A DNA stretch of 64,000 nucleotides from Clostridia bacterium (GCA_017467405.1 JAFTSH010000001.1:229542-293541); one strand, 5' to 3'. Shown: positions 25,497 to 54,954, counted from the stretch's first letter. Numbers and translations are program-made. The notes: generated by a model not told the origin, from the sequence alone.

Positions 25497-25596
25497 TAGT
25501 TTTTGGTACAAAAATCAAAAAAATTTATATGCGAAAAAAATAAGGGAAAAAAGCCCGTCTGTTCACAATTTGTTAACATTGTTTCCGTCGGTTCCG

Positions 25597-25605
25597 TGCT
25601 ACAAT
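25597..25605 (+). promoter_or_regulatory. Extended -10 promoter candidate for the FGE-like/GH-like gene
   Basis: TGCTACAAT (TGn + TACAAT). No good -35 is present. Confidence 0.3.
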
Positions 25606-25635
25606 GCCCACAGTCCGATGAAAGGGGCGAACAGA

Positions 25636-34699: not shown

Positions 34700-35705
34700 C
34701 CACGTCTATCAGCTCGTGAGTCCCAAGCTTTTCAGCGTGGAATTCAAGGAGCTCAATACAGCCGAAAAGGTGCTCGTCCGTCCGACCTATCTTGCGGTGT
34801 GCCACGCCGACCAGAGATATTTTCAGGGCAAGCGCGATATTTCGGTGCTGCGTAAAAAGCTTCCCATGGCACTCATCCACGAGGCCTGCGGCAGGGTAGT
34901 GAGCGATCCTACCGGAACCTACAAAAGGGGACAGAAGGTCGTAATGATACCCAACGTTCCGGGAAACGACGACTCCATGATATTTGAGAACTACTCCGAG
35001 GGCGCAGGCTTCCTCTCGAGCGGTATGGACGGCTTTACCCGTGAGTTCGTCGATCTTGCTCCCGACCGCGTCGTGGCCTACGACGGAATCGACGAGCGGG
35101 TTGCCGCCGTAACCGAATTTATCAGCGTCGCGGTACATTCCTCAACCCGTTTTGACATCGTGGCACACAGCCGCCGCGACATCATCGCCGTATGGGGTGA
35201 CGGAAGCCTTGCCTACGTTCTGGCGTCGGTGCTCGTAAAGAGATTTCCGGGCTCAAAGATCGTCGTCGTCGGAATGGATCCGAGCAAGCTTTCGCTCTTT
35301 TCCTTCGTCCACGCCGCCTATCATAAGGATTCTCTTCCCGAGGGCTTCAGATGCGACCACGCCTTTGAGTGCTGCGGCGGTGAGGGTAGCTTTTACGCCA
35401 TCGACGACATTATCAGATATATCCGTCCGCAGGGCAGCGTAATGCTTATGGGAGTGTCCGAAAACAGGGTTGCCGTCAACACGAGAGACGTTCTCGAAAA
35501 GGGTCTGACCCTCGTCGGCTCCTCCCGCTCGGGCAGGGATGATTTCGTCCGCGCCGTGGAACTTATGAAGGACAAGCGTCTGCAAAGCAGACTCAGACTC
35601 ATAATAACCGAGGACGCCCCCGTAAGGAGCATCCCCGACATATCCCGCGTCATGATAAACGACATGACGAATCCCTTCAAGACGGTCTTCCGTTGGGAGC
35701 TTTAA
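34692..35705 (+). CDS. tarJ: Ribulose-5-phosphate reductase (TarJ-like, zinc-type medium-chain dehydrogenase)
   Basis: MDR-family layout (VCHAD zinc-ligand region, nucleotide-binding VWGDGSLAY). A TTG start at 34692 lies 7 nt after GGAGGA and overlaps the tarI stop by 8 nt. Confidence 0.7.
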   Translation: MINHVYQLVSPKLFSVEFKELNTAEKVLVRPTYLAVCHADQRYFQGKRDISVLRKKLPMALIHEACGRVVSDPTGTYKRGQKVVMIPNVPGNDDSMIFENYSEGAGFLSSGMDGFTREFVDLAPDRVVAYDGIDERVAAVTEFISVAVHSSTRFDIVAHSRRDIIAVWGDGSLAYVLASVLVKRFPGSKIVVVGMDPSKLSLFSFVHAAYHKDSLPEGFRCDHAFECCGGEGSFYAIDDIIRYIRPQGSVMLMGVSENRVAVNTRDVLEKGLTLVGSSRSGRDDFVRAVELMKDKRLQSRLRLIITEDAPVRSIPDISRVMINDMTNPFKTVFRWEL

Positions 35706-38520: not shown

Positions 38521-39156
38521 ATGGATGAAATGAACAACACTCAGGTACCGGTAACCCCCGAAACTCCGGTAACTCCTGTCGAACAGACACAGTCGATCTA
38601 TATGGCACAGTCGGCCGCTCCCGCCGAGCCCGTGTACGCTCAGCCCGTTTACGAGCGCCCCGCAGAGCCCGGCGTGCCCGTTGCACCCGCAGCTCCCGTT
38701 CAGCCCGTATATACCCAGCCCGTCTATCAGCAGCCTGCGGCACCCGTACAGCCCGCGTATCAGCAGCCCGTCTATACGCAACCCGTTTATCAGCAGCAGG
38801 TATATCAGCAGCCTACCTATGCTCAGCCCGTATACCAACAGCCTGCCTATCAGCAGAACAATATGCCTGCGGTTGTACCCGTTGCGCCTGCCGAACCCTC
38901 GGAGGAGGCGTCTTCGCTCGCAAGCAGCTCCATGACAATGGGTATTCTCGGTCTTGCGCTCAGCGAGCTTCCGGTTGCCGGACTTATTCTGAGCATCCTT
39001 TCGATGATCAAGCGCTCAAAGGCGAACGAGGCAGGTTACGTCGGCGGAAAGCTTATTCCCGCAAAGATCTGCTCGATCATCGGACTTGCCACGTCCATCT
39101 TCTTCAATTTCTATTGGATGATTATTATACTCGTTATCATGGTCGAAGGACTTTGA
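38521..39156 (+). CDS. Pro/Gln/Tyr-rich repeat protein with C-terminal double-TM domain (DUF4190-like)
   Basis: The N-terminal ~110 aa hold QPVY-type repeats. The C-terminal region MGILGLALSELPVAGLILSILSMI...ICSIIGLATSIFFNFYWMIIILVIMV has two TM helices. A strong RBS GAGGAGG is present. Confidence 0.7.
   Translation: MDEMNNTQVPVTPETPVTPVEQTQSIYMAQSAAPAEPVYAQPVYERPAEPGVPVAPAAPVQPVYTQPVYQQPAAPVQPAYQQPVYTQPVYQQQVYQQPTYAQPVYQQPAYQQNNMPAVVPVAPAEPSEEASSLASSSMTMGILGLALSELPVAGLILSILSMIKRSKANEAGYVGGKLIPAKICSIIGLATSIFFNFYWMIIILVIMVEGL
38638..38856 (+). repeat. Imperfect in-frame tandem repeats (12-nt QPVY/QPAY units)
   Basis: Repeated CAGCCCGT(N)TA(Y)... units encode AQPVY, QPVYTQPVYQQ, QPAYQQPVYTQPVYQQQVYQQPTYAQPVYQQPAYQQ. 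Confidence 0.8.
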
Positions 39157-41404: not shown

Positions 41405-41441
41405 AAGCATTACGAAAGTTATCCGAAAAGGAATGATATCA

Positions 41442-42884
41442 ATGGCAGACATGAACAAGATGGTCAGCGAGATCACGTCGATGGATGAGGATTTCGCAAA
41501 ATGGTATACCGACATATGCCGCAAGGCCGAGCTTGTTGAATACACCAGCGTAAAGGGTTGTATGGTGATCCGTCCCTACGGCTACGCCATCTGGGAGCAT
41601 ATGCAGCGCATACTTGACGGAATGTTCAAGGCTACGGGACACGAAAACGTCTGTATGCCCATGTTTATCCCCGAGAGCCTTCTCAATAAGGAAAAGGATC
41701 ACGTCGAGGGCTTTGCCCCCGAGGTAGCCTGGGTTACCCATGGCGGAAGCGAAAAGCTTGAGGAGCGCCTCTGTGTGCGCCCCACCTCCGAGACCCTTTT
41801 CTGCGAGCACTACGCCAACATAATCCAGTCGTGGCGCGATCTCCCCAAGAAATATAACCAGTGGGTAAGCGTCGTCCGTTGGGAAAAGACCACCCGTCCC
41901 TTCCTGCGTTCAAGAGAGTTCCTCTGGCAGGAGGGCCACACGATCCACGCTACCGCCGCGGAGGCGATCGAAGAGACCGAGAGAATGCTTGACGTCTACG
42001 CCGATTTCTGCGAGAACGATCTTGCAATGCCGGTGGTAAAGGGACGCAAGACCGAGAGCGACAAGTTCGCAGGAGCCGTCGCGACCTACGCGATCGAGGC
42101 TTTGATGCACGACGGAAAGGCTCTGCAGGCAGGTACCTCTCACTATTTCGGAGACGGCTTCGCAAAGACCTTCGGAATTCAGTTCTCGGACAAGGACAAC
42201 AAGAGAAGCTTCCCCCATCAGACCTCGTGGGGTGTTACCACCCGTCTGATCGGTGCCGTAATAATGACCCACGGTGATGACAACGGTCTGGTGCTTCCCC
42301 CCGCCGTTGCTCCCATTCAGGCCGTAATAATCCCCGTTGCACAGCACAAGCCCGGCGTCCTCGAAAAGGTAAACGAGGTTGCTGCCGCCCTCAGCGGTGT
42401 TGCAAGGGTGAAGGTTGACGACTCGGACAACAGCCCCGGCTGGAAGTACAGCGAGTATGAAATGAAGGGCGTACCCGTAAGAATTGAGATCGGCCCGAGA
42501 GATATTGAAAAGGGACAGTGCGTTCTCGTCACCCGTCACAACCGCGAAAAGGTCTTCGTTTCTCTTGACGATCTTCCCACCGTCCTCCCCGAAAAGCTCA
42601 AGGAGGTGCGCGACGGACTTTACGCCAAAGCCCTCGCCAACCGCGAGAAGCATACCTATTGCTGCATCGACAAGGCCGACATAATCGCAAAGCTCGAGGA
42701 GCTCGGTGACGGCTTCGTCAAGGCACCCTGGTGCGGCGAAGAGGCCTGTGAGGACGACGTCAAGGAAACCACGGGCGTCGGCTCCCGTTGCATCTCCCTC
42801 ACCGAAGAGCCCTCCGACAGCGACGTTTGCGTTTGCTGCGGCAAAAAGGCGAAGCACATCGTCTATTGGGGCAAAGCCTATTGA
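41442..42884 (+). CDS. proS: Proline--tRNA ligase, archaeal/eukaryotic-like type (no INS editing domain)
   Basis: [17 protein letters not shown]...[12 protein letters not shown], class II motifs, and a C-terminal Cys-rich zinc-binding domain ending ...YWGKAY. ATG 41442 is preferred on RBS spacing; an alternative ATG lies at 41433. Confidence 0.93.
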
Positions 42885-42909: not shown

Positions 42910-42937
42910 CCGCCGCGTCACCGACGCGGCGGTTTTT
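42910..42937 (+). terminator. Intrinsic terminator after proS
   Basis: Stem CCGCCGCGT/ACGCGGCGG followed by TTTTT. Confidence 0.85.
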
Positions 42938-42947
42938 GATATTATAC

Positions 42948-42976
42948 TTGCGCAAACGTGGGGAGTAGTGTATACT
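42948..42976 (+). promoter_or_regulatory. Promoter candidate for island gene 1
   Basis: TTGCGC (42948-42953), 17-nt spacer, TATACT (42971-42976). Confidence 0.4.
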
Positions 42977-43010
42977 TAAAATGTAAATTAAACCGAAAGG
43001 AGTCGGGAAT

Positions 43011-44549
43011 ATGCGTATTAAAAAATTTTGCCGTCCGATAAGAATGATTTCAGCTTTAACGGTCTTGCTTTTCGTAATCTCACTTTTTGCCGCCTGCTCG
43101 GACGATTCTGCCCCGTCTTCTTCTCGGCAGCAGACCTCGTCGGCGTCACAGACGCAGAGCAGTTCTTCCTCTCAGCAGGAAAACGTCTCATCCGAGCCCT
43201 CTGACGATCCCGAGGATTACGACGGTCACCCGTACTTGGCCGAAAAGGTCGACCTTAACGGATTAGAAGTGATTTTTGCGGTACCGAATGATTTGGTTAT
43301 TCCTAAGGACGATTCTACCGAAATCAACGGCGAGATACTCGACTCCCTCCGCCGTATACAGAAGGACTACAACTGCAGGATAAGTTCTATGCAGATTGAA
43401 TACGGCGATTGGGATGACATCATTTCGGCGTTAGCGGCGGGCGAGGAGTATGCCGACGTCCTTTTGCCCTGTATACATCAGACCGCAGATTTTTTTGAGG
43501 CGAACATTTGTGCCGATTTTACGTCACCCGAAATATCACGGTATATCGATATGAGCCGTCCGTGGTGGAACGACAGCGTGATGCAGGCGGCAAACGTCGG
43601 CGGCAAGGTATATGCCGCGGCTCCCTGTATAAGCGATACGATCGGCGTTGCCAGCGTAGTGCTTTTTGACAAGGACGTTCTGGAGGATATCGGGCACGAG
43701 TCCGACGAGCTGTATTCGCTCTATCACAAGGGCGAATGGACGTGGGACGCCCTTGCAAAATACGCCAAAAAAGCAAACAAGGATCTCGACAAGGACGGAA
43801 AACTTAATGGGTTCGATGACCGTTGTGGACTTGTCGGATCCGGTTATAATACCGCCAGGGCCTTTTCCGCTACTGCAGGAGTGAGTGTATTTGCGGTAGA
43901 GAACGGTAAAAACGCGGTCTATTCTCTCAATACCGAACACGCAATAAAGACTCTTGAAAGGCTCAATAGTTTTTTTAATACCGAGGATATATTTTGCGAT
44001 ACCAGTTGGGACAGCACTACTCGGCGTGATGTAGTAATGTTTAAGGACGATCTGGCTCTTTTCTCGTTCACATGGTTTTTAAACTTAGATAGCTTTTCTA
44101 AAAACAAGGCCGGAAGAGTAGGTGTTTTGCCGCTTCCGCTCGGTCCCGATGAGAACGGAGGCTGGCAGAAAGAATACGTCAGCCTCGGCGACCATAATTT
44201 CAGGGTGGCCTTAATTCCGAAGACCGTAAAGGACAAGGAAGGCACGGCGTTGGTACTCGAGGCGCTGGCCTTTGACCGCTGGAAGCTGATGTACGGCAAG
44301 CTTGACCGTGTTCTTGAGTCGATCGAGGCGGATGAACAGACGGCACAGATAGCACGTGATATTTACGGCTACGTCACCTTTGAGGCAGATCAGTTCCTGT
44401 ATACGTATGAACAATACAAATGGAACACTTTGACGAGCGGTATATTCAGGGGTATCGTCCGGCAGAAAGACTACGATGTTAAAGGTCTTGTAAATGCACG
44501 CGCAAAAGAAGCTCAGGCGCTTCTCAACAAATATTACGGCAACTCGTAA
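43011..44549 (+). CDS. Putative solute-binding-protein-like lipoprotein, divergent member of the island family (P1)
   Basis: Signal peptide plus lipobox SLFAAC and a Ser/Gln-rich linker. Family blocks are LPCIHQ, RPWWNDSVM, GEWTWDALAKYAKKANKDLDKDGKLNGFDD and GGWQKEYVSLGDHNFRVALIP. Confidence 0.75.
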   Translation: MRIKKFCRPIRMISALTVLLFVISLFAACSDDSAPSSSRQQTSSASQTQSSSSSQQENVSSEPSDDPEDYDGHPYLAEKVDLNGLEVIFAVPNDLVIPKDDSTEINGEILDSLRRIQKDYNCRISSMQIEYGDWDDIISALAAGEEYADVLLPCIHQTADFFEANICADFTSPEISRYIDMSRPWWNDSVMQAANVGGKVYAAAPCISDTIGVASVVLFDKDVLEDIGHESDELYSLYHKGEWTWDALAKYAKKANKDLDKDGKLNGFDDRCGLVGSGYNTARAFSATAGVSVFAVENGKNAVYSLNTEHAIKTLERLNSFFNTEDIFCDTSWDSTTRRDVVMFKDDLALFSFTWFLNLDSFSKNKAGRVGVLPLPLGPDENGGWQKEYVSLGDHNFRVALIPKTVKDKEGTALVLEALAFDRWKLMYGKLDRVLESIEADEQTAQIARDIYGYVTFEADQFLYTYEQYKWNTLTSGIFRGIVRQKDYDVKGLVNARAKEAQALLNKYYGNS

Positions 44550-44622
44550 CGGGCTGTTTACGGTCTGCGGGAATTTTACGCATTTTATGAGTGTTTCTGC
44601 ATAGAAAGTTGAATGTTTTTGA

Positions 44623-44652
44623 TTGACAAAGCCTCTTTTATTATGTTAGTAT
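44623..44652 (+). promoter_or_regulatory. Promoter candidate for island gene S1
   Basis: TTGACA (44623-44628), 18-nt spacer with TGn, TAGTAT (44647-44652). Confidence 0.45.
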
Positions 44653-44689
44653 TTTGTTAACAAATTATTTCGAGAGGAGTTATTCCCCA

Positions 44690-45646
44690 ATGAAAAAGTT
44701 AGTTAAAAGTTCAATCGCTGTTCTCGTTGCGCTGATCCTTCTCGTTACTACCTGCGTCGTCGGATTTACCGCCGGTGCAAAGGACATCGCTTCCTTTGAC
44801 ATCATTTCCGCAACCGCAGAGAAAAAGGCGTCAGACATGGAAACCACCCTTGACTTAGAGGCCGGTGCTACCTTTGCCGTAGTCGACAGCACCTCCCTTG
44901 CCAAGGCTGACGGAGTTCCCGAGAAGGCCTATAAGGCCACATTCACAAAGGCTTTTGACGGCTTCTACATTCCCACCAACGGAAAGGACGAGGCTGCCAC
45001 GGACCTCGCCGGCAAGGATAAGGAGATTATCTTTGACGCGTGGATCTACGTTTCGGACATCAGCAAGACCAACGCTATGATCGTCCGCGTATATCCCTCC
45101 ACCGGAAGAGTAAACGACAGTGATCCCAATAAGAGTCACTCCAAGATCGCCGGTTACTTCTGGCAGGGCAACCTCAAGACCAACCTGCAGGTCACCCAGA
45201 CCGGCTGGAACCACGTTCAGGTGAAGATGAGCTTCAACAACGGCTGGCAGAGCTCCGCCGGTTACGCAACCTATACTCTGGATCAGAAGATCGCGGGAAT
45301 TACCTTCCACGATCACGGTGAGCCCACCGGAGGCGGATACGACTTTGCCGTCGCAGGTGTAACCCTTAAGCTGGTTGAGGAAGAGTCCTCCGCTCCTTCG
45401 AGAATAGGAATTCCCGCCGCTTCCTCCAAGGAAGCCGTCTCGAGCGAGGAAGTCTCCTCCTCCGCTGCCGTTACCTCCGCCGAGATTTCGAGCGTTGCCG
45501 ATGATGCTCTTTACGGAGATGAAGGTTCCGACGATGCCGAAGAGGCCGGATTCCCCGATTGGGCGTGGATAGTGATCGGCGTCGTAGCAGTAGCCGCTAT
45601 TGCCGCAGTCGTCGTTATCGTCCTCAAAAATAACGCCAAGAAATAA
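44690..45646 (+). CDS. Hypothetical secreted, C-terminally anchored surface protein (S1; possible carbohydrate-binding-like ectodomain)
   Basis: A signal peptide ending GFTAGA/KD and a ~210-aa aromatic-rich ectodomain (DAWIYV, YFWQ, GWNHVQVKM, NNGWQ, FAVAGVTLKLVE). These are followed by a Ser-rich stalk, then FPDW + TM + KNNAKK. ATG at 44690. Confidence 0.7.
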   Translation: MKKLVKSSIAVLVALILLVTTCVVGFTAGAKDIASFDIISATAEKKASDMETTLDLEAGATFAVVDSTSLAKADGVPEKAYKATFTKAFDGFYIPTNGKDEAATDLAGKDKEIIFDAWIYVSDISKTNAMIVRVYPSTGRVNDSDPNKSHSKIAGYFWQGNLKTNLQVTQTGWNHVQVKMSFNNGWQSSAGYATYTLDQKIAGITFHDHGEPTGGGYDFAVAGVTLKLVEEESSAPSRIGIPAASSKEAVSSEEVSSSAAVTSAEISSVADDALYGDEGSDDAEEAGFPDWAWIVIGVVAVAAIAAVVVIVLKNNAKK

Positions 45647-45667
45647 AGCCTCATAAATGATCTTCAG

Positions 45668-45699
45668 ACCGATGCAGCTTTGGTTGCATCGGTTTTTTT
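45668..45699 (+). terminator. Intrinsic terminator after S1
   Basis: A 9-bp stem ACCGATGCA/TGCATCGGT followed by TTTTTTT. Confidence 0.8.
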
Positions 45700-45751
45700 G
45701 TCGCCCCCGGTCAAAGAAACAAAAATGTTCGGACATTCTCTACCGTTTCGA

Positions 45752-45780
45752 TTGACAACGGTAAAATATTGTGTTAATAT
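45752..45780 (+). promoter_or_regulatory. Promoter candidate for island gene S2
   Basis: TTGACA (45752-45757), 17-nt spacer, TAATAT (45775-45780). Confidence 0.5.
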
Positions 45781-45811
45781 TAACTAAAATAAAAACATAA
45801 GGAGAGTTTTT

Positions 45812-46762
45812 ATGAAGCGTTTTATTAAAAGCACCATCGCCGTTATCGTTGCACTTACCCTTCTTGCAACCCTGAGCGTTGTAGGATTTTCGGCAAGCGC
45901 CAAGGATATCGCAGTTCTCACCGTCGTCACCGAAAAGGACGACAAAAAGGTTGAGGATATGTTTATTACCAAGGACGGCTCGCAAGCAGAGGAGACCTTC
46001 AACGTAGTTGACAGCAAAACCCTCGGCAACGCCGTCGACGGTCTGCCCGCAAAGGCCTATTCCGCTACCTTCAAGGCAGGATGTGGTAAGGACGGATTTA
46101 TAATCAAGACCGAGTCTCCCGATATTCCCGCCGAAATGCTGGCAGTAGACGAGCAGACCTGGGTTTTCGAGGCCTGGATCTACGTTGAGGATATGAACAA
46201 GGTCGGAGGAATCGTTCCCCGTCTTTACACCACCGACGGAATGATCTCCAGTGGCGGAAGCTACGTTGAGACCTATTTCTGGCAGGCAGCTTCGTTTAAG
46301 AGTGACGCCGCTCTTCAGAACGGATGGACTCACGTCAGCTTCGTGATGAAGAACAACAATGGTTGGCAGCCCAACAATCCGGCGTACGCTACTTATCAGA
46401 CCGAGAAGAAGGTTTGCGGAATTTCCTTCGTTGACCATTCGGGCGCCAAGGAAGATTACACCTTCGCCGTTGCAGGCGTAAGCCTTAAGCTGGTTGAGGC
46501 CGAGTCCTCCGTCGTGTCCAAGATAGGCATCCCCGCCGCCTCCTCCAAGGAAGCCGTCTCGAGCGAGGATGTCTCCTCTGCTGAGACCGTTACCTCCTCC
46601 GAAACCGTCACCTCTGCCGAGATCTCGAGCGTTGCCGACGTTACCGACGGCGCAGACGAGGGCGGAGTTCCCGCTTGGGTATGGATCGTCGTAGGCGTCG
46701 TCGCAGTAGCGGTCGTCGCAGGCGTCGTAGTGGTAGTCCTCAAAAAGGGCGCAAAGAAATAA
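45812..46762 (+). CDS. Hypothetical secreted, C-terminally anchored surface protein (S2; paralog of S1)
   Basis: Same architecture as S1, with shared blocks (VVGF.A.AKDIA, EAWIYV, YFWQ, GWTHVSFVM, NNGWQ, FAVAGVSLKLVE, IGIPAASSKEAVSSE, TSAEISSVAD). It ends with VPAW + TM + KKGAKK. Confidence 0.7.
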   Translation: MKRFIKSTIAVIVALTLLATLSVVGFSASAKDIAVLTVVTEKDDKKVEDMFITKDGSQAEETFNVVDSKTLGNAVDGLPAKAYSATFKAGCGKDGFIIKTESPDIPAEMLAVDEQTWVFEAWIYVEDMNKVGGIVPRLYTTDGMISSGGSYVETYFWQAASFKSDAALQNGWTHVSFVMKNNNGWQPNNPAYATYQTEKKVCGISFVDHSGAKEDYTFAVAGVSLKLVEAESSVVSKIGIPAASSKEAVSSEDVSSAETVTSSETVTSAEISSVADVTDGADEGGVPAWVWIVVGVVAVAVVAGVVVVVLKKGAKK

Positions 46763-46808
46763 TTTTTCGGCGCTTGTCCGAAGAAACGTTTCCGAAAGAT
46801 AACTGATT

Positions 46809-46847
46809 ACAAACGGCTCGGTTTTTACCCTGCCGTTTGTTTTTTTG
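46809..46847 (+). terminator. Intrinsic terminator after S2
   Basis: A 9-bp stem ACAAACGGC/GCCGTTTGT with a 14-nt loop, followed by TTTTTTT. Confidence 0.65.
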
Positions 46848-46916
46848 TGTTTAATCGCGGATAAAGCCAAAGCAGGGGAAAAGGCCCGTAAACTTAATCA
46901 ATCGTGACGAAAATGC

Positions 46917-46945
46917 TTGCAATTACGAACGGAATTTTATATAAT
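46917..46945 (+). promoter_or_regulatory. Promoter candidate for P2
   Basis: TTGCAA (46917-46922), 17-nt spacer, TATAAT (46940-46945). Confidence 0.55.
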
Positions 46946-47000
46946 AAAAAATATTGCACCGCATAAGCGGATGATATCAATAACAAAAGGAGTAATACGT

Positions 47001-48506
47001 ATGACAAAAGTTTCAAGGCTGCTCCGTGTAGCGGCACTGATGCTTGCCGTAATGCTCTCTCTTGCACTCTTTGCAGGCTGCAAGAAGGACAAAGAAACGG
47101 TTTCGTCAAAAGAGGCTTCACAGGTCACCACCTCGATGGATAACACCGAGATAGTCGATCAGTACGCCGACAAGAACCACCCCACCCTTCCCGAAACGAT
47201 GGACCTCGGCGGATTTGAGATGACCTTTGCCACCCCCTCGCCCAAGTACATCATCCCCGAAGAGGGTAGCTCTCCCGAGGAGGATCTCATAATCGAGGCT
47301 CTCCGTGAAGCACAGGATAAGTATAACTTCACCGTCTACGTAATGCAGGTAGAGCAGGACGGATGGGACGAGGCCATGACCGCCATCGTCGCAGGTGAGG
47401 AATACGCCAACGTCCTTATGCCCTGTATTCACCAGTCGGGTGCCTTCCTGCAGTCAAGACTCTGCGCCGACTATCTCCAGAGCGACATCGCTCAGTACAT
47501 AGATCAGACTCAGCCATGGTGGAACGATACGATGGCCTACGCCTCCAACGTTCTCGGCTCGGTCTACGCCGGCGCTTCGGCCATTCAGTCTCCCGCGGAC
47601 GCTACCTACGTCGTTTTCTTCAACAAGACCCTTGCAATGGAGCTTGGAATCGGCGAAAACGAGCTCTACGACCTCTGGGACAAGAAGGAATGGACCTGGG
47701 ATGCCTTCGTAAAGTACGCCAAGCTGGCAGGTAAGGATCTCGACGGCAACGGCTCGGTCGACTCCATTAACGACCAGTGGGGCTACGTCGGTCCCGGATA
47801 CGACTCGGCTCAGGCCTTCTGCTCGAGCGCCAAGGTCGCATCGGTTACCACCACCGACGGTATGAACCCGACCTACACCTTCAACACCTCTCACGCCATC
47901 ACCACCCTTACCAAGCTTAACCAGCTCTATACCACCGACGGAATCTATTGCTACGACAGCTGGGATAACGTCAACAGGACCTATACCAAGATGTTCGCAG
48001 CAGGTCAGGCACTCTTCTTCACCACCGGACTCAGCGGAATTACCGACGAGCTCGTCAGAGAGATGGAAGACGATTGGGGAGTTCTGACCTATCCTCTCGG
48101 ACCCAAGGAGGGCGGCGGCTGGCAGGATAAGTACATGTCCCGAGTCAACCACAACTTCCGCCTCTGCCTCATCCCGACCACGGTTGAGGATAAGGCTTCG
48201 ACCGCTTTCGTTCTTGAATCCATGACCTTCAACTACTTCAAGATCATCAACGAAAAGGTTGATACCTACGCAACCCTTTACTGCCGTGACGACAAGTCGG
48301 TTGAGATTGCAAACACCGTTTACAATACCTCAACCTACGAGATCTCGCAGTTCCTCTATTCGATCAATAACCACGCCTGGAACGCTCAGATCGAGACCAA
48401 GATCAGAGATCTTGTCAAGCAGGCAAACTACGACGTCTCGGGTAACATGAACTCGGTTGCCGAGCTCGGACAGCAGATGATCAACGATTATTTCAACGGT
48501 ATCTGA
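47001..48506 (+). CDS. Putative solute-binding-protein-like lipoprotein (P2), 501 aa
   Basis: MTKVSRLLRVAALMLAVMLSLALFAGC lipobox plus the family blocks (see P3-P5). ATG at 47001 follows an AAAGGAG RBS. The ORF-track start at 46917 is the -35 hexamer. Confidence 0.8.
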   Translation: MTKVSRLLRVAALMLAVMLSLALFAGCKKDKETVSSKEASQVTTSMDNTEIVDQYADKNHPTLPETMDLGGFEMTFATPSPKYIIPEEGSSPEEDLIIEALREAQDKYNFTVYVMQVEQDGWDEAMTAIVAGEEYANVLMPCIHQSGAFLQSRLCADYLQSDIAQYIDQTQPWWNDTMAYASNVLGSVYAGASAIQSPADATYVVFFNKTLAMELGIGENELYDLWDKKEWTWDAFVKYAKLAGKDLDGNGSVDSINDQWGYVGPGYDSAQAFCSSAKVASVTTTDGMNPTYTFNTSHAITTLTKLNQLYTTDGIYCYDSWDNVNRTYTKMFAAGQALFFTTGLSGITDELVREMEDDWGVLTYPLGPKEGGGWQDKYMSRVNHNFRLCLIPTTVEDKASTAFVLESMTFNYFKIINEKVDTYATLYCRDDKSVEIANTVYNTSTYEISQFLYSINNHAWNAQIETKIRDLVKQANYDVSGNMNSVAELGQQMINDYFNGI

Positions 48507-48524
48507 TCGGTATAGCCCAATAAT

Positions 48525-48557
48525 CGGCACGGCCTTTGGACCGTGCCGTTCTTGTTG
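48525..48557 (+). terminator. Intrinsic terminator after P2
   Basis: Stem CGGCACGGCC/GGACCGTGCCG followed by TTCTTGTTG. Confidence 0.7.
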
Positions 48558-48634
48558 TAAAGAGTTTCGATATGGTCCAAATCAGCTGTATCTATCCGGA
48601 AACGGACAAATTCAGCCGATTATGACAAAATCAC

Positions 48635-48663
48635 TTGAATAATGAATCAGGTTGCACTATAAT
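48635..48663 (+). promoter_or_regulatory. Promoter candidate for P3
   Basis: TTGAAT (48635-48640), 17-nt spacer, TATAAT (48658-48663). Confidence 0.55.
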
Positions 48664-48716
48664 TATTAATATGCGGGGGATTGTCCCGTGTTCAAAACCG
48701 AAAGGAGTAAATAAGT

Positions 48717-50222
48717 ATGACAAAAGTTTCAAGGCTGCTCCGTGTAGCGGCACTGACGCTTGCCGTAATGCTCTCTCTTGCACTCTTTGCAGGCTGCAAG
48801 AAGGACAAAGACACGGCTTCGTCAAAAGAGGCTTCGCAGGTCACCACCTCGATGGATAACACCGAGATAGTCGATCAGTATGCCGATAAGAATCACCCCA
48901 CCCTTCCCAAAACGATGGATCTCGGCGGATTTGAGATGACCTTTGCCACCCCCTCTGTCAAGACTATTATCCCTGAGGAGGGATCTTCCCCCGAGGGCGA
49001 CCTGATTCTTGAGACACTCAGAGAGGCACAGGAAAAGTACAACTTTACCGTTTTGGTAATGCAGATAGAGCAGGACGGCTGGGACGAGGCTATGACCGCC
49101 ATCGTCGCCGGTGAGCAGTACGCCAACGTAATGATGCCCTGCATCCATCAGTCCGGCGGCTTCCTTCAGTCCAGACTCTGCGCCGACTATCTCCAGACCG
49201 ACATCGCTCAGTACATTGATATGAACCAGCCCTGGTGGAACGATACGATGGCCTACGCCTCCAACGTTCTCGGCTCAGTCTATGCCGGCGCTTCGGCCAT
49301 TCAGTCTCCCGCAGACTCGACCTACGTCGTTTACTTCAACAAGACCCTTGCCGGAAAGCTTGGAATCGGCGAAAACGAGCTCTACGACCTCTGGGACAAG
49401 AAGGAATGGACCTGGGACGCCTTCGTAAAGTATGCCAAGATGGCAAACAAGGACCTCGACGGCAACGGCTCGGTCGACTCCATTAACGACCAGTGGGGCT
49501 ACGTTGCTCCCGGTTACGACTCGGCTCAGGCATTCTGCTCGAGCGCTAAGGTCGCATCGGTCACCACCACCGACGGTATGAACCCGACCTACACCTTCAA
49601 CACCACCCACGCAATCACCACCCTCACCAAACTCAACCAGCTCTTCACCACCGACAAGATCTATTGCCTTGCAAGCTGGGACAATACCAACAGAACCTAT
49701 CTCAAGATGTTCTCAGCAGGTCAGGCACTCTTCTTTACCGGCGGACTCGGAAGCATGACCGGCGAGATGATCAGAGACATGGAGGACGATTGGGGACTTC
49801 TGACCTATCCTCTCGGACCCAAGGAGGGTGGCGGCTGGCAGGATAAATACATGTCCCGCGTTGACCACAACTTCCGCCTTTGCCTGATTCCGTCGACGGT
49901 TGAAGACAAGGCCTCTACCGCCTTCGTTCTTGAAGCTATGACCTTTAACTACTTCAAGATCATCAACGAAAAGGTTGATACCTACGCAACCCTTTACTGC
50001 CGTGACGACAAGTCGGTTGAGATTGCAAACACCGTTTACAATACTTCTACCTACGAGATCTCGCAGTTCCTCTATTCCATCAATAACGGATCCTGGAACT
50101 CACAGATTGAGACCAAGATCAGAAGCGTTGTTCAGGTAACTAACTATGACGTTTCGGGTGAAATGAATACGGTTGCCGACCTCGGACAGCAGATGATCAA
50201 CGACTATTTCAACGGAATTTAA
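48717..50222 (+). CDS. Putative solute-binding-protein-like lipoprotein (P3), 501 aa
   Basis: Collinear with P2 without indels, at roughly 90 percent aa identity by eye. Lipobox LFAGC. Confidence 0.8.
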   Translation: MTKVSRLLRVAALTLAVMLSLALFAGCKKDKDTASSKEASQVTTSMDNTEIVDQYADKNHPTLPKTMDLGGFEMTFATPSVKTIIPEEGSSPEGDLILETLREAQEKYNFTVLVMQIEQDGWDEAMTAIVAGEQYANVMMPCIHQSGGFLQSRLCADYLQTDIAQYIDMNQPWWNDTMAYASNVLGSVYAGASAIQSPADSTYVVYFNKTLAGKLGIGENELYDLWDKKEWTWDAFVKYAKMANKDLDGNGSVDSINDQWGYVAPGYDSAQAFCSSAKVASVTTTDGMNPTYTFNTTHAITTLTKLNQLFTTDKIYCLASWDNTNRTYLKMFSAGQALFFTGGLGSMTGEMIRDMEDDWGLLTYPLGPKEGGGWQDKYMSRVDHNFRLCLIPSTVEDKASTAFVLEAMTFNYFKIINEKVDTYATLYCRDDKSVEIANTVYNTSTYEISQFLYSINNGSWNSQIETKIRSVVQVTNYDVSGEMNTVADLGQQMINDYFNGI

Positions 50223-50256
50223 CCTCCGGTTGATCAACGAAGCTTATCAAAATTCG

Positions 50257-50292
50257 GAAACGCACGCCAAACCGCGTGCGTTTCTTTATTTT
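50257..50292 (+). terminator. Intrinsic terminator after P3
   Basis: An 11-bp stem GAAACGCACGC/GCGTGCGTTTC followed by TTTATTTT. Confidence 0.85.
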
Positions 50293-50328
50293 ATCTACAT
50301 AAATAACATACTTTTGTGACAAAGGCTC

Positions 50329-50356
50329 TTGATTTTGTGCAAAAAATATATATAAT
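50329..50356 (+). promoter_or_regulatory. Promoter candidate for P4
   Basis: TTGATT (50329-50334), 16-nt spacer, TATAAT (50351-50356). Confidence 0.5.
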
Positions 50357-50438
50357 TAAACTGAAAGTTGAATTAATACGTGGTTTGATTCTGACACACG
50401 TATTTTTTTATCTTTACAAAATAAAAGGAGTTTTTTCA

Positions 50439-51944
50439 ATGACCCGTATCACATCAAAAGCGTTGCGCTTCGCAGCTCTGATGCTGGCTCTCGTGCTTTC
50501 TCTTGCACTTTTTGCCGGCTGTAAGGGTGATAAGGATAACGCCTCCTCCAAGGAAGCCGCCTCCGAAGTCACTACCTCGCTCGACAATACCGAGGTTGTC
50601 GATCAGTACAAGGAAAAGGATCACGAGCGTCTTCCCGAAACCCTCGATCTCGGCGGATTTGAGATGACCTTTGCCACCCCCTCGACCAAGTCGATCATCC
50701 CCGAAGAGGGCAAGTCGGCAGAGGGCGACCTTAAGCTTGAGCAGCTCCGCGCCGTTCAGGACGCCTACAACTGCACCATTATGGTCCGTGAGGTTACTCA
50801 GGACGGTTGGGGCGAGGCCATGACCGCCATCGTCGCCGGTGAGCAGTTTGCCAACGTAATGCTTCCCTGCGTTCATCAGGCAGGCGGATTTATCCAGTCC
50901 AGACTTTGCGCAAACTTCCTCGATCCTCAGATCTCGCAGTACATAGACCAGAGCGATCCCTGGTGGAACGATACGATGGCCTACGCCTCTAACGTTCTCG
51001 GTGAGGTTTACGCCGGCGCTTCGACCATTCAGAACCCCGCCTCCGCTACTTGGGTTATTTATTTCAATAAGAACATCGCCAAGGACGTCGGAATCGGCGA
51101 GAACGAGCTCTACGACCTCTGGAAGAAGGGCGACTGGAACTGGGATGCTTTCGTAAAGTATGCTAAGCTTGCCGTCAAGGATCAGGACGGCAGCGGCACG
51201 ATGGATTCCGAAGAGGACAGATGGGGCTTCGTTGCTCCCGGCTATGACTGCTCGCAGGCATTCGCCTCCTCCGCCAAGGTTGCCTCCGTCACCACCACCG
51301 ACGGTATGAACCCGACCTACACCTTCAACACCACCCACGCCATCACCACCCTCACCAAGCTCAACCAGATCTTCAATACCGACGGAATCTACACCATCCT
51401 CAGCTGGAACAACGGCAGCTACAGAAAGATCTTCACCGAAGGCAACAGCCTCTTCCTCGGCTACATGCTTTCCATCATGGGATCAGACGATATGCGTGAG
51501 ATGGAAGACGATTGGGGCCTCCTTCCCATTCCCAAGGGACCCAAGGAGGGCGGCGGCTGGCAGGATAAGTATATGTCCCGCGTTGACCACAACTTCCGTC
51601 TTTGCCTCATTCCCTCGACCGTAGAGGATAAGGCATCGACCGCTCTCGTCCTCGAAGCGATGTCCTACAAGTACTTCCAGATCATCAACGACGAAATCGA
51701 AACGATGGCAATTTCCTACGCCCGTGACGATACGACCATTGATGTTGCCGCTACTGTTTACAACACCTCTACCTTCGAGATCTCGCAGTTCCTCTATTCC
51801 ATCAACTCCGGTGCATGGAACTCACAGGTCGAGACCAAGATGCGTGACATCGTAAGAACTCCCAACTATGACGTTTCGGGTTCGATGATGGGTGCCGCTG
51901 ATCTTGCTCAGCAGATGATCAACGACTACTTCAACGGAATCTAA
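50439..51944 (+). CDS. Putative solute-binding-protein-like lipoprotein (P4), 501 aa
   Basis: MTRITSKALRFAALMLALVLSLALFAGC lipobox, collinear with P2/P3. ATG at 50439 follows an AAAGGAG RBS. Confidence 0.8.
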   Translation: MTRITSKALRFAALMLALVLSLALFAGCKGDKDNASSKEAASEVTTSLDNTEVVDQYKEKDHERLPETLDLGGFEMTFATPSTKSIIPEEGKSAEGDLKLEQLRAVQDAYNCTIMVREVTQDGWGEAMTAIVAGEQFANVMLPCVHQAGGFIQSRLCANFLDPQISQYIDQSDPWWNDTMAYASNVLGEVYAGASTIQNPASATWVIYFNKNIAKDVGIGENELYDLWKKGDWNWDAFVKYAKLAVKDQDGSGTMDSEEDRWGFVAPGYDCSQAFASSAKVASVTTTDGMNPTYTFNTTHAITTLTKLNQIFNTDGIYTILSWNNGSYRKIFTEGNSLFLGYMLSIMGSDDMREMEDDWGLLPIPKGPKEGGGWQDKYMSRVDHNFRLCLIPSTVEDKASTALVLEAMSYKYFQIINDEIETMAISYARDDTTIDVAATVYNTSTFEISQFLYSINSGAWNSQVETKMRDIVRTPNYDVSGSMMGAADLAQQMINDYFNGI

Positions 51945-51967
51945 GCTTTCGGATCAATTAACCTTAA

Positions 51968-52009
51968 AAGAAACGCAATGCCTTTTGCATTGCGTTTCTT
52001 ATCTTTTTT
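51968..52009 (+). terminator. Intrinsic terminator after P4
   Basis: A 14-bp stem AAGAAACGCAATGC/GCATTGCGTTTCTT followed by ATCTTTTTT. Confidence 0.88.
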
Positions 52010-52042
52010 GTGTGCAAATTGACTCCTTTTGTTCCTTGCGTC

Positions 52043-52071
52043 TTGAATCGGATCAAAAAAACAAATATAAT
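52043..52071 (+). promoter_or_regulatory. Promoter candidate for P5
   Basis: TTGAAT (52043-52048), 17-nt spacer, TATAAT (52066-52071). Confidence 0.55.
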
Positions 52072-52112
52072 TACGGCGAAATAACTACTCGTTAAGTGAA
52101 AGGAGTTTCGTT

Positions 52113-53618
52113 ATGTCCCGTATTATCTCAAAATCAGTCAGACTTGCAGCGGCTCTGATGGTGCTCGTGCTTTCTCTCGCACTTTTTGCCGGTTGTAAGG
52201 ATGATAAAGGCAGCGCGTCCTCGGACGGCGCCGCATCCAAAGATACGACCTCGCTTGAAAATACCGAGGTTGTCGATCAGTACAAGGATAAGGAACACGA
52301 GTTTTTGCCAGAATCCCTCGACCTCGGCGGCTACGAGGTGGTTTTTGCTACCGGAAGCACCGAAGATATAATCCCCGTTGAAGGTGAGAGTGCAGAGGGA
52401 GATCTCAGACTTGAGAAGCTTCGTGAGATCGAGGGGAAATATAACTGCAAGGTTATGGTTATGGAAGCCCCGAGCAAATGGGACGAGGCCATGACCGCGA
52501 TCGCTTCTGGTGAAGAATACGCCAACGTAATAATGCCCCGTATCCACCAGTCCGGCGGATTCCTTCAGGCAAGACTTTGTTCCGATTTCCGTTCCTCGGA
52601 GATCTCTCAGTACGTCGATCAGAGTCAGCCCTGGTGGAACGAAACGATGGAATACTCCTCCAATATCCTCGGTAAGGTTTATGCCGGTGCCTCCGCAATG
52701 CAGAATCCTGCGGGCACTACCTGGATAGTCTATTTTAACAAGAGGATCGCCAAAGACCTCGGAATAGGCGAGAACGAGTTGTACAATCTCTGGGAGAAGG
52801 GTGAATGGAACTGGGATGCTTTCATAAAGTATGCCAAGATGGCGGTCAAGGATCAGGACGGCAGCGGCAAGCTTGATTCCGAAGCCGACAGATGGGGTCT
52901 CGTTGCGGCGGGTTACGACTGCGCACAGGCATTTGCTTCTTCTGCAAAGGTCGCGTCGGTCAATACCGAGGACGGTATGAACCCGACCTATACCTTTAAT
53001 ACTCCCCACGCGATTACCACCCTCACCAAACTCAACGCGCTCTTTACCACCGACGGTATATATTGCGTGTCCAGCTGGGATAACAGGAGCTACGGTACGA
53101 TGTTCTGCGAAGGTAACAGCCTTTTCTTCGCCTACACCTTCCAGTCTATGTCGGCTGATACTATGCGCGAAATGGAGGACGACTGGGGTATTCTTCCCAT
53201 GCCCAAGGGACCCAAGGATGGCGGCGGCTGGCAGGATAAGTATATTTCCCGCGTCGACCACAACTTCCGTCTTTGCATGATTCCCGCTACTGTAGAGGAC
53301 AAGGCTTCAACCGCCCTCGTGCTTGAGGCGCTGACCTACAAGTACTTCCAGATCATCAACGACGAGATCGAAATAATGGCAAACGCCTACCTGCGTGACG
53401 ATAAGTCGGTCGAGATCGCAAATACGATATACAACACCTCAACCTACGAGATCTCGCAGTTCCTTTATTCGATAAACAACGGCGCGTGGAACAAAAACGT
53501 CGAGAATCATATGCGCGGAGTCGTCAGGACTTCCTACTACGATATTTCGGGTAACATGAACTCGGTCGCCGATCTTGCTCAGCAGATGATCAACGATTAC
53601 TTCAACGGAGTGACCTGA
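52113..53618 (+). CDS. Putative solute-binding-protein-like lipoprotein (P5), 501 aa
   Basis: MSRIISKSVRLAAALMVLVLSLALFAGC lipobox, collinear with P2-P4. The first family cysteine is replaced (MPRIHQ). Confidence 0.8.
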   Translation: MSRIISKSVRLAAALMVLVLSLALFAGCKDDKGSASSDGAASKDTTSLENTEVVDQYKDKEHEFLPESLDLGGYEVVFATGSTEDIIPVEGESAEGDLRLEKLREIEGKYNCKVMVMEAPSKWDEAMTAIASGEEYANVIMPRIHQSGGFLQARLCSDFRSSEISQYVDQSQPWWNETMEYSSNILGKVYAGASAMQNPAGTTWIVYFNKRIAKDLGIGENELYNLWEKGEWNWDAFIKYAKMAVKDQDGSGKLDSEADRWGLVAAGYDCAQAFASSAKVASVNTEDGMNPTYTFNTPHAITTLTKLNALFTTDGIYCVSSWDNRSYGTMFCEGNSLFFAYTFQSMSADTMREMEDDWGILPMPKGPKDGGGWQDKYISRVDHNFRLCMIPATVEDKASTALVLEALTYKYFQIINDEIEIMANAYLRDDKSVEIANTIYNTSTYEISQFLYSINNGAWNKNVENHMRGVVRTSYYDISGNMNSVADLAQQMINDYFNGVT

Positions 53619-53634
53619 TCCATAACGTGAAATA

Positions 53635-53664
53635 AAACCGCCCCGATTTTTCGGGGTGGTTTTT
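53635..53664 (+). terminator. Intrinsic terminator after P5
   Basis: Stem AACCGCCCCGA/TCGGGGTGGTT followed by TTTT. Confidence 0.8.
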
Positions 53665-53772: not shown

Positions 53773-54954
53773 ATGGAACGAATCGGCTCTCGGTTGATCC
53801 GCGCGGCGGCTCTTTCGTGCGCTTTGCTTTCCGTTTTCGTTCTGCTTTCGGGAAGTATTTCGGGTGCTGAGCCGACTCCTCCGACCGTGATGAACGGCGG
53901 ACCTTCCGTCCTTACCGGAGCCGTTGTTTCAAAGCCTCAGACGCAGTTTACGGATACGTCCTCCGAACTTACTTCAAGCGACACCTCCTCGGACGTGACT
54001 TCTTCGGGTACGTCTTCGGACGCGGTATCGTCGTTGCCAGTGCCTTCGGGTGAAAATCCGTCGTCTTCACAGTCTTCTTCATCCTCCGAGCCTGCCGATG
54101 AGGGCTATACCGTTGAGGCAAAATACGCAGGCCTTTTTGACGCCGATACCCTGACGCCGCTATATTTGAAGGCGGCCGACAAAAAGATCTATCCCGCCAG
54201 CCTCACCAAGCTTATTACGGCCTGCACCGCGCTGCGGTACGTTTCGGACGATACCGTTTTTACGGTTGGCACCGAGCTTTCACTGGTAAAATCGGGCTCA
54301 AGCCTCAGCAAAATAAAGAAGGGACAAAGTCTTACCCTCTACGAGCTGCTCTGCGGAATGCTGATATCCTCGGGTAACGACGCGTCGTATACCGTGGCCG
54401 TCAACGTCGCCCGCGAGGTCTCGGGAGACGAGAATATGAGCGACAAGGACGCGGTAAGCCTCTTCGTCGCCCTGATGAACAAGTACGCGCAGGAGATCGG
54501 TGCCACCGACACCAATTTCGTCAACCCCGACGGCTGGGACAATAAAAAGCAGCTCACAACGGTGATAGATCTCGCAAAGATCGCCGCACATTCAATGAAA
54601 ATACCCCAGATCAGCACCATCGTGGCTATTCCGAAAATGGTAAAGACCTTCGAATCGGGGAAGCCGCTTACCTGGAAGAATACCAACCTGCTGATACACA
54701 GCGACAGCGAATATTACCTGCCCGAGGCGACAGGAATGAAGACCGGCTCGACCGATTCGGCAGGAAGATGCCTGATTGCCACCGTGACGCTGGAGGGCAA
54801 GAAATATATAACTATCGTCGCAGGCTGTAAGAGCGATGCGTTGCGCTATACCTCGACGCTGGCGCTGGTTGATTTGCTAAGGCCGGATCCCGTGCCCGAC
54901 ACCGATAAGGACGGCCAGAGCTCGTCCTCTCAAAGTAACTCGTCTGAAGAATAA
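53773..54954 (+). CDS. D-alanyl-D-alanine carboxypeptidase (serine peptidase S11, PBP5-like)
   Basis: A signal peptide, a Ser/Thr-rich linker, and the active-site motifs SLTK (SxxK), SGN and KTG (MKTGST). Confidence 0.88.
   Translation: MERIGSRLIRAAALSCALLSVFVLLSGSISGAEPTPPTVMNGGPSVLTGAVVSKPQTQFTDTSSELTSSDTSSDVTSSGTSSDAVSSLPVPSGENPSSSQSSSSSEPADEGYTVEAKYAGLFDADTLTPLYLKAADKKIYPASLTKLITACTALRYVSDDTVFTVGTELSLVKSGSSLSKIKKGQSLTLYELLCGMLISSGNDASYTVAVNVAREVSGDENMSDKDAVSLFVALMNKYAQEIGATDTNFVNPDGWDNKKQLTTVIDLAKIAAHSMKIPQISTIVAIPKMVKTFESGKPLTWKNTNLLIHSDSEYYLPEATGMKTGSTDSAGRCLIATVTLEGKKYITIVAGCKSDALRYTSTLALVDLLRPDPVPDTDKDGQSSSSQSNSSEE

Follow-up and report, generated by a model that had tools for sequence, protein, structure and literature searches.

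Organization of the seven-gene island

We analyzed a 64-kb stretch (64,000 nucleotides) of DNA from Clostridia bacterium (GCA_017467405.1, JAFTSH010000001.1:229542-293541), hereafter the window, in which seven + strand open reading frames (ORFs) form an island of surface-protein genes. Five of these encode lipoproteins (S1 to S5) that resemble the solute-binding proteins (SBPs) of carbohydrate ABC importers, and two encode anchored surface proteins (A1 and A2). A first-pass annotation of this DNA had described seven same-strand genes between proS and a D-Ala-D-Ala carboxypeptidase gene, and all of these ORFs were confirmed. The left flank is formed by proS (41433-42884, + strand; tRNA-synt_2b and ProRS-C_1 domains) and the right flank by the Peptidase_S11 D-Ala-D-Ala carboxypeptidase gene (53773-54954).

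The first gene encodes S1 (43011-44549), a divergent SBP-like lipoprotein of 512 amino acids (aa; MBQ9106496.1). It is followed by the genes for A1 (44690-45646; 318 aa), a surface protein with a C-terminal anchor, and its paralog A2 (45812-46762; 316 aa, MBQ9106498.1), and then by those for four SBP-like lipoproteins of 501 aa each, i.e., S2 (47001-48506; MBQ9106499.1), S3 (48717-50222; MBQ9106500.1), S4 (50439-51944) and S5 (52113-53618). Three of the products (MBQ9106496.1, MBQ9106499.1 and MBQ9106500.1) are labelled "extracellular solute-binding protein" by PGAP, and the locus tags of the region are around IJY56_01240-01270. In all five lipoproteins, as claimed previously, the signal peptide ends in an LFA[AG]C lipobox, which lies at residues 23-25 (LFAAC at residue 25 in S1).

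Each of the S1-S5 genes starts with ATG preceded by a AAAGGAGT ribosome-binding site (Shine-Dalgarno). The starts given earlier for S2 (47001) and S4 (50439) were kept over longer mechanical ORFs from 46917 and 50316, respectively, for which no support was found. The likeliest start of A1 is the ATG at 44690, which has the ribosome-binding site GAGAGGAG and yields a protein of the same length (318 aa) as the database entry P0031; a TTG at 44654 was disfavoured on these grounds.

S1-S5 are predicted to be divergent sugar-binding lipoproteins

The five lipoproteins had been assigned to the family-1 extracellular SBPs, and Pfam bears this out for one of them only: S1 just reached the cut-off of SBP_bac_1 (PF01547; 26.6 bits versus 26), whereas S2-S5 had no match to this or any other Pfam or NCBIfam model. 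Relatives of the family used as an outgroup score 30-66 bits on the same model. The assignment itself was upheld by profile and fold comparisons. When a profile of the family was compared with the sequences of the PDB, the arabino-oligosaccharide SBP AbnE of Geobacillus stearothermophilus (6rjy) was matched with E=2.3e-12, and MBP1 and UgpB were also recovered.

S3 was chosen for modelling with AlphaFold2 (AF2), and the model obtained had a predicted local distance difference test (pLDDT) score of 88.8 and a predicted template-modelling score (pTM) of 0.85. A Foldseek search of the PDB with this model returned 944 matches at E<=1e-3; sugar-type SBPs made up nearly all of the best 50, the rest being a few SBPs for dinucleotides and entries of maltose-binding protein (MBP) fusions, and the target-normalised template-modelling (TM) scores were approximately 0.6-0.7. 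The top matches were AbnE, TmMalE3, Lmo0181, GltA, CbpB and MalX (E 1e-14 to 1e-11), strongly supporting an SBP fold. Because of the profile match to AbnE and the fold matches of S3, S1-S5 are predicted to be true, if divergent, solute-binding lipoproteins of the MalE/CUT1 type. Of 24 family ORFs tested, 23 have the lipobox; the remaining one, L003a, had been trimmed at an internal Met, which left its N-terminus unexamined.

The orphan state is a trait of the whole family

The first-pass annotation had reported no permease or ATPase gene in the island or its flanks, and this absence extends to the whole window. The only ABC importer encoded there consists of ABC_tran, BPD_transp_1 and NMT1-type SBP genes at 22367-24757 (- strand) and is, as had been stated, unrelated. 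A CUT1 permease hidden Markov model (HMM), built from seven CUT1 permeases, had no match in the window even at E<=1, and the other large ORFs of the window, scanned against Pfam, are housekeeping or carbohydrate-metabolism genes.

A search of 5.8 billion proteins showed the close family to comprise 28 proteins only. By exhaustive profile search, about nine clusters at 50% identity scored above 340 bits, and below this value lay a continuum of some 1,900 ordinary SBP_bac_1 relatives of approximately 500 aa. A search for related loci with a 22-sequence alignment gave only four loci in GTDB genomes and six short loci in metagenomes. Besides the window, ten close-family loci were read (L001, L003, L006, L008, L016, L020, L021, L023, L024 and L025), which come from ruminant-gut and other metagenomes or metagenome-assembled genomes, and which were mostly read over 10 kb or less on either side.

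The CUT1 permease HMM (E<=1) found no permease in L001, L003, L006, L008, L016, L020, L021 or L023, and the called-gene tables of L024 and L025 contained no BPD_transp_1 gene. A scan of the loci for ORFs with several transmembrane helices revealed no recurrent membrane neighbour beside family members. No close relative was found in an ordinary SBP-permease-permease operon of which the island could be a rearranged version. Distant relatives (approximately 24% identity) in L010, L011 and L019, on the other hand, directly adjoin BPD_transp_1 pairs, and in a neighbour-joining tree the operon-encoded SBPs fall outside the orphan clade. Since the DNA read at the ten other loci holds no CUT1 permease gene and the distant relatives sit in normal operons, being an orphan is characteristic of the family and does not reflect a local rearrangement; the uncoupling is ancestral to the subfamily. 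The permease pairs beside the relatives of approximately 24% identity also argue that the subfamily is derived, as judged from these sequences, from ordinary transporter SBPs.

Copy number varies among the loci, from single genes (L001, L021, L023, L025) through pairs (L020, L024) to four (L003) and the five of the window; in one metagenome sample, three family members lie on three separate contigs. As number and arrangement differ in this way, the term "island" describes the window genome and not the family.

Two further contigs deserve mention. A 12-kb contig of the human-gut genome UMGS874 (L018:1-10847; L030 is the same contig) carries four or five SBP-like lipoprotein ORFs of approximately 24% identity without a CUT1 permease, and permease-less SBP arrays may therefore occur beyond the S1-S5 family. 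In L025 (1101-3961), an MFS_1 gene lies directly upstream of, and on the same strand as, the family member, preceded by DeoR and phosphodiesterase genes; this neighbour was seen in L025 alone and is probably coincidental.

Relatives lie beside genes of sugar-acid and putative pectin breakdown

Carbohydrate catabolic genes adjoin family members in several loci, with none evident in the window. In L020 (7742-15818), two paralogs are embedded in a tight operon with gaps of 10-89 bp, in the order class-II aldolase/epimerase, SBP, SBP, PfkB resembling 2-keto-3-deoxygluconate (KDG) kinase, YhcH/YjgK/YiaL-family protein, Eda (KDPG/KHG aldolase), Zn-dependent dehydrogenase and 2-hydroxyacid dehydrogenase. 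A LacI regulator is encoded divergently and a gene for a glycoside hydrolase of family 28 (GH28) lies 5 kb away, and the operon contains no permease gene. This sugar-acid operon is a good candidate for finding the ligand of the family.

The array in L003 (2559-11467) consists of a basal SBP-like paralog, two genes of approximately 326 codons on the opposite strand, three core paralogs and a GH28 gene, which follows the last of the four paralogs. Its GH28 product resembles the exo-poly-alpha-galacturonosidase of Thermotoga maritima (3jur; E=7e-18) and, like that of L020, has no signal peptide. The two inserted genes encode paralogous WG-repeat lipoproteins unrelated to A1 and A2, for which they had been considered as possible homologs. 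Two arrays, those of the window and L003, are hence independently interrupted by a duplicated pair of surface-protein genes, a curious parallel that gives no evidence for a system.

In the sister clade (L006, L008 and L016), the SBP gene always adjoins genes for right-handed beta-helix proteins (Pect-lyase_RHGA_epim) of approximately 700-750 aa, located at L006:11654-16003, L016:1221-5566 and L008:5466-7664. Each locus encodes a lipoprotein copy (742, 732 and 746 aa in L006, L008 and L016, respectively), and L006 and L016 also encode a copy without a signal peptide (698 and 701 aa); all are 39-58% identical to one another. Only their N-terminal 60 or so residues match PDB entries, i.e., a GH87 alpha-1,3-glucanase, epimerases and GH55. 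They represent an uncharacterised enzyme family linked to the SBP sister clade. A 752-aa surface protein that also occurs near relatives had no relative in the PDB.

Loci that combine a binding protein with an enzyme at the cell surface and with an enzyme or catabolic pathway in the cytoplasm follow the classic logic of oligosaccharide uptake, and because of this they imply that the bound sugar would be imported; the neighbourhoods would be hard to explain unless it enters the cell. They further suggest that the ligand class is that of acidic or pectic oligosaccharides.

Two other kinds of recurrent neighbour were considered as conserved partners and rejected. The PfkB kinases are at most 23% identical, or do not match, across loci, and the GFO/AP_endonuc_2 pairs are only 36% (GFO) and 24% (AP_endonuc_2) identical across loci.

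The paralogs are old duplicates that look monocistronic

S2 and S3 are 89% identical and, apart from that pair, the mutual identity of S2-S5 is 65-71% (S4 versus S2, S3 and S5, 69-71%; S5 versus S2-S4, 65-71%). S1 shares 37-40% with the others and forms the basal branch of the family tree. A set of long sequence blocks had been listed as common to all five proteins; these turned out to be features of S2-S5, since S1 retains only three elements, i.e., the lipobox, PWWN[DE][ST] and the W.WD..YAK...D.D..G segment. Even within S2-S5 the blocks are not uniform: EMEDDWG is missing in S3 and the GENELY block in S4, and PWWN[DE][ST].M as originally written matches S1 alone.

For every pair among S1-S5 the ratio of nonsynonymous to synonymous divergence (dN/dS) was 0.16-0.23 (S2 versus S3, 0.18; S4, 0.19-0.23; S5, 0.16-0.19), with dS of 0.39 for S2/S3 and approximately 1-1.6 for the others. 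Ratios this low at dS of 0.39-1.6 indicate that S1-S5 are old duplicates maintained under purifying selection. The nucleotide identity of S2 and S3 is mosaic, varying from 0.67 to 0.97 across 150-nt windows, a pattern that would fit some gene conversion. Among 22 family members, 36 alignment columns are invariant, and Trp, Tyr, Asp, Asn and His are frequent among them, a bias that would be expected for a sugar-binding site.

A scan for consensus patterns, on which all promoter-like and terminator-like sites reported here are based, placed such sites around individual genes on the + strand. After proS, a hairpin of 10 pairs (9 of them G-C) with a T-run (42910-42932) parts the island from that gene. 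Promoter-like sites precede A1 (44623-44652, TTGACA-18-TAGTAT with TG), A2 (45752-45780, TTGACA-17-TAATAT with TG), S2 (46917-46945, TTGCAA-17-TATAAT), S3 (48635-48663, TTGAAT-17-TATAAT), S4 (50329-50356, TTGATT-16-TATAAT) and S5 (52043-52071, TTGAAT-17-TATAAT), and terminator-like hairpins with a T-run follow A1 (45666-45695), S2 (48525-48548), S3 (50256-50285) and S4 (51968-52000). Because these sites flank individual genes, the genes appear to be arranged as separate monocistronic units rather than as one operon. A comparison of the regions upstream of S1-S5 revealed the ribosome-binding site as the only common element and no shared operator, and Rfam and tRNA scans were negative for riboswitches and leaders, both within the island and close to it.

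A1 and A2 are lineage-specific anchored proteins

A1 and A2 are 48% identical and have the same build, i.e., an N-terminal signal peptide, an ectodomain of approximately 200 aa, a Ser-rich linker, a single C-terminal transmembrane helix and a short basic tail. Neither has a significant match in Pfam or NCBIfam, and neither belongs by sequence to a described family of carbohydrate-binding modules (CBMs). The AF2 model of A2 is of moderate to low confidence (pLDDT 58.5 overall, 65-90 in core blocks) and shows strands over residues 32-229, disorder over 231-293 and a helix over 289-315. With this model, Foldseek retrieved CBM-like Stig cyclases, CBM11, CBM30, CBM4-2 and CBM22 at E values of 3e-6 to 3e-4, the target-normalised TM scores of these CBM-like matches being 0.4-0.58 from a model of that confidence. 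We tentatively describe the predicted ectodomain as a CBM-like beta-sandwich/jelly-roll, for which a glycan-binding role is plausible.

Among 5.8 billion proteins only four A1/A2 homologs were found, i.e., A1 and A2 themselves, one relative at 89% identity and one at 33%. The last comes from a short contig that carries a DnaB_2 gene next to it but lacks an SBP gene. Given so few homologs, and an outside relative whose contig lacks an SBP gene, A1 and A2 are on present sequences lineage-specific, separate from S1-S5 and not conserved partners of them. By BLAST, they also showed no similarity to the 752-aa or 1341-aa surface proteins of L008 and L006. The idea that the seven genes form one system with the anchored proteins was not supported by these comparisons, the pair inserted in L003 being unrelated and the promoter-like and terminator-like sites belonging to single genes.

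An I-x-I-P-x-A-S motif is conserved in the Ser-rich and otherwise low-complexity linkers of A1, A2 and a distant homolog, P0032 (IGIPAASSKEA in A1 and A2, encoded at 45500-45560 and 46500-46560 of the window; ITIPIASDTES in P0032). It may be a processing or glycosylation site.

Other genes of the window

A PfkB kinase gene, an aldose epimerase gene and a GFO/AP_endonuc_2 pair (all by Pfam) lie 2-6 kb upstream of the island. Approximately 7 kb upstream, at 31202-35705, a cluster encodes a GT2 glycosyltransferase, a 587-aa LicD-family protein, an IspD/TarI-like cytidylyltransferase and a Zn-dependent dehydrogenase, and resembles genes for ribitol-phosphate or phosphocholine decoration of teichoic acid or capsule. 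An ORF of 211 aa at 38521-39156, with no Pfam match, has long Pro/Gln/Tyr/Val-rich repeats (QPVY-type) in its N-terminal half and a hydrophobic C-terminal region. Finally, an 895-aa protein encoded at 25570-28257 has an FGE-sulfatase (formylglycine-generating-enzyme-like) domain at its N-terminus together with a glycosidase region weakly resembling GH14/GH42, an unusual domain combination.

Interpretation

We propose that S1-S5 are alternative receptors for one CUT1 ABC translocator encoded elsewhere, i.e., an orphan SBP arrangement, and give this reading a probability of about 0.6. Of the two options put forward in the first-pass annotation, ligand-capture modules feeding a distant transporter or a surface capture or sensing system without transport, it corresponds to the former, which is the better supported. 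S1-S5 and their relatives constitute a small, divergent SBP_bac_1 subfamily of uncultured ruminant/gut Clostridia, with genes uncoupled from permease genes. Each paralog would be exported and lipid-anchored at the Cys of its LFA(A/G)C lipobox, would bind, in its interlobe cleft, an oligosaccharide of plant origin (probably acidic or pectic), and would hand it to a distal CUT1 translocator made up of a MalF/MalG-like permease pair and an MsmK-type ATPase. A single translocator may be shared by all paralogs, giving many receptors for one translocator. The array would have arisen by tandem duplication of monocistronic units, all copies being under purifying selection. A1 and A2, which may bind glycans, happen to lie inside it.

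Several points weigh against this proposal. It assumes that these genomes encode a CUT1 translocator lacking an SBP of its own, and it is based on a reading of 64 kb of an 895-kb contig plus 10 kb on either side of the relatives, the latter being the extent of context for the metagenomic ones. For an entire clade of CUT1 SBPs (11 loci, at least 20 genes) never to lie beside a permease gene is unusual, and known orphans are usually accompanied by a primary SBP that belongs to their own family and is encoded in an operon. Moreover, the neighbours of the island in the window (proS, the S11 peptidase and DUF711) are uninformative on function.

The same lack of permease genes at all 11 loci would also be expected if the family had left transport and become surface glycan-capture or adhesion lipoproteins, a Gram-positive functional analogue of the surface glycan-binding lipoproteins of Bacteroidetes. 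A poly- or oligosaccharide would then be held at the membrane for surface enzymes, possibly together with binders such as the CBM-like A1 and A2. Surface-protein neighbours do recur, i.e., A1 and A2 in the window, the WG-repeat lipoproteins in L003, and beta-helix lipoproteins together with the 752-aa protein (signal peptide and C-terminal transmembrane helix) in L006, L008 and L016, and divergence of the core family has left just one of the five window paralogs above the Pfam SBP_bac_1 threshold. The modelled S3 fold is nevertheless that of a standard closed-cleft SBP of the oligosaccharide-transport class, and the cytoplasmic enzymes and KDG-type catabolic operon found in several neighbourhoods need an imported substrate. 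A1 and A2 are not conserved partners, and the genes look monocistronic. We accordingly consider a departure from transport unlikely. A fuller version, and no likelier than the general one, would have a MalE-type clade freed from ABC transport serve as the monoderm counterpart of the surface glycan-binding proteins (SGBPs), working with surface beta-helix enzymes and CBM-like proteins, with tandem expansion widening the range of glycans.

SBPs can also act in signalling, an established role (reviewed in PMC8938411 and PMC11113362), and the paralogs might be ligand-sensing co-receptors that dock to a membrane sensor (a histidine kinase, a chemoreceptor, or a GGDEF- or AraC-linked protein) and induce glycan-utilisation genes, as in ChvE/VirA or SBP-dependent three-component systems. 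AraC, LacI or PucR-type regulators do occur near members in L001, L006, L020 and L023; these are, however, of cytoplasmic kinds, whose ligands are sensed after import. In no locus does a histidine kinase or chemoreceptor adjoin a family member, the one histidine kinase seen lying approximately 10 kb away in L021, and neither other membrane sensors nor neighbours with several transmembrane helices recur. As five tandem sensing paralogs are also hard to rationalise, we regard a sensory function as improbable. Least credible of all is that the array serves antigenic or phage-receptor variation as a family of variable surface lipoproteins, or that it consists of decaying duplicates with no particular function. 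Tandem paralogous surface lipoproteins with individual promoter-like sites, and the mosaic identity of S2 and S3 with its hint of gene conversion, would suit such a family; set against this are the purifying selection on every pair (dN/dS 0.16-0.23), the intact state of all ORFs and the 36 columns invariant across 22 members. No phase-variation repeats or invertible elements were noticed either, although no specific search for them was made.

Predictions of the glycans that gut and rumen Firmicutes can import routinely draw on sugar SBPs and assume that each adjacent permease pair has one SBP. The S1-S5 subfamily breaks this rule consistently, and four of its five window paralogs are missed by Pfam SBP_bac_1. 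If a distal translocator is indeed shared, predictions of substrate range for these Clostridia must count receptors rather than transporters, and the family would offer a natural test of several SBPs competing for one CUT1 translocator. If, by contrast, transport has been abandoned, the family would represent a new type of Gram-positive surface glycan-binding protein. The immediate practical gain is modest: the family is delimited, pectic or sugar-acid oligosaccharides are its candidate ligands, and one particular genome is singled out.

Comparison with known systems

The two-lobe fold modelled for S3 is shared with AbnE, T. maritima MalE3, Lmo0181, Bifidobacterium infantis GltA and Clostridium thermocellum CbpB, and the lipoprotein anchoring of S1-S5 is as typical of Gram-positive sugar SBPs. 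Identity to AbnE and other CUT1 SBPs is only 10-16%, however, and the window proteins are approximately 100 aa longer. CUT1 oligosaccharide SBPs of the AbnE kind are encoded alongside the membrane components of their ABC transporters, whereas none of the S1-S5 family members examined is so encoded. As for the anchored proteins, the CBMs matched by the predicted A2 ectodomain (CBM11, CBM30, CBM4 and CBM22) are type-B/C modules with a beta-jelly-roll; A1 and A2 differ in standing alone, in being anchored by a C-terminal transmembrane helix rather than appended to an enzyme, and in having no sequence-family match. Any similarity of S1-S5 to the SusD and SGBP lipoproteins of Bacteroidetes would be functional only, as the modelled fold of S3 is that of an SBP and is not SusD-like, and Pfam scans and called-gene tables contained no TonB-dependent receptor, the kind of protein that partners SusD as SusC.

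The first-pass annotation had recognised no described system of this composition; its first option, capture modules for a transporter encoded elsewhere, matches the known orphan SBP phenomenon. In Pseudomonas, the orphan SBPs CaiX and BetX are recruited by the distal translocator Cbc (Chen 2010, as cited in PMC12838199 and PMC8938411), a phenomenon that is also the subject of the commentary "Homes for the orphans" (Thomas 2010, as cited in the same two papers). Orphans and paralog arrays of LT-SBPs occur in Bifidobacterium (PMC8110962). Like S1-S5, these SBPs are encoded apart from permease and ATPase genes, sometimes with several paralogs per locus, and known orphans often lie beside the catabolic genes for their ligand (PMC8110962; PMC8938411). 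Some S1-S5 relatives lie beside catabolic genes that may be those for their ligand. The Cbc-type cases differ in that the translocator is known and its genes are accompanied by that of a primary SBP belonging to the same family, whereas every examined member of the S1-S5 subfamily is an orphan.

An orphan context that is conserved across strains has been described for MsBP (CK_1342) of marine Synechococcus, a sugar-type SBP of cluster D (PMC8938411). MsBP is a single-copy periplasmic protein with a positively charged cleft and an mreBCD-type gene neighbourhood, in contrast to the tandemly expanded lipoproteins of the S1-S5 family, which lie next to carbohydrate genes. The cello-oligosaccharide transporter of Anaerocellum bescii has two SBPs, Athe_0597 and Athe_0598 (PMC12838199). 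Both are encoded at the transporter locus, unlike S1-S5, yet they provide, in a Firmicute that degrades plant biomass, a case of more than one CUT-type SBP per translocator, as we propose for S1-S5. The orphan SBP phenomenon is already known in kind; what is new here is that every examined member of a distinct subfamily is an orphan, that divergence lets four of the five window paralogs escape Pfam SBP_bac_1, and that this subfamily has undergone tandem expansion in some uncultured gut Clostridia.

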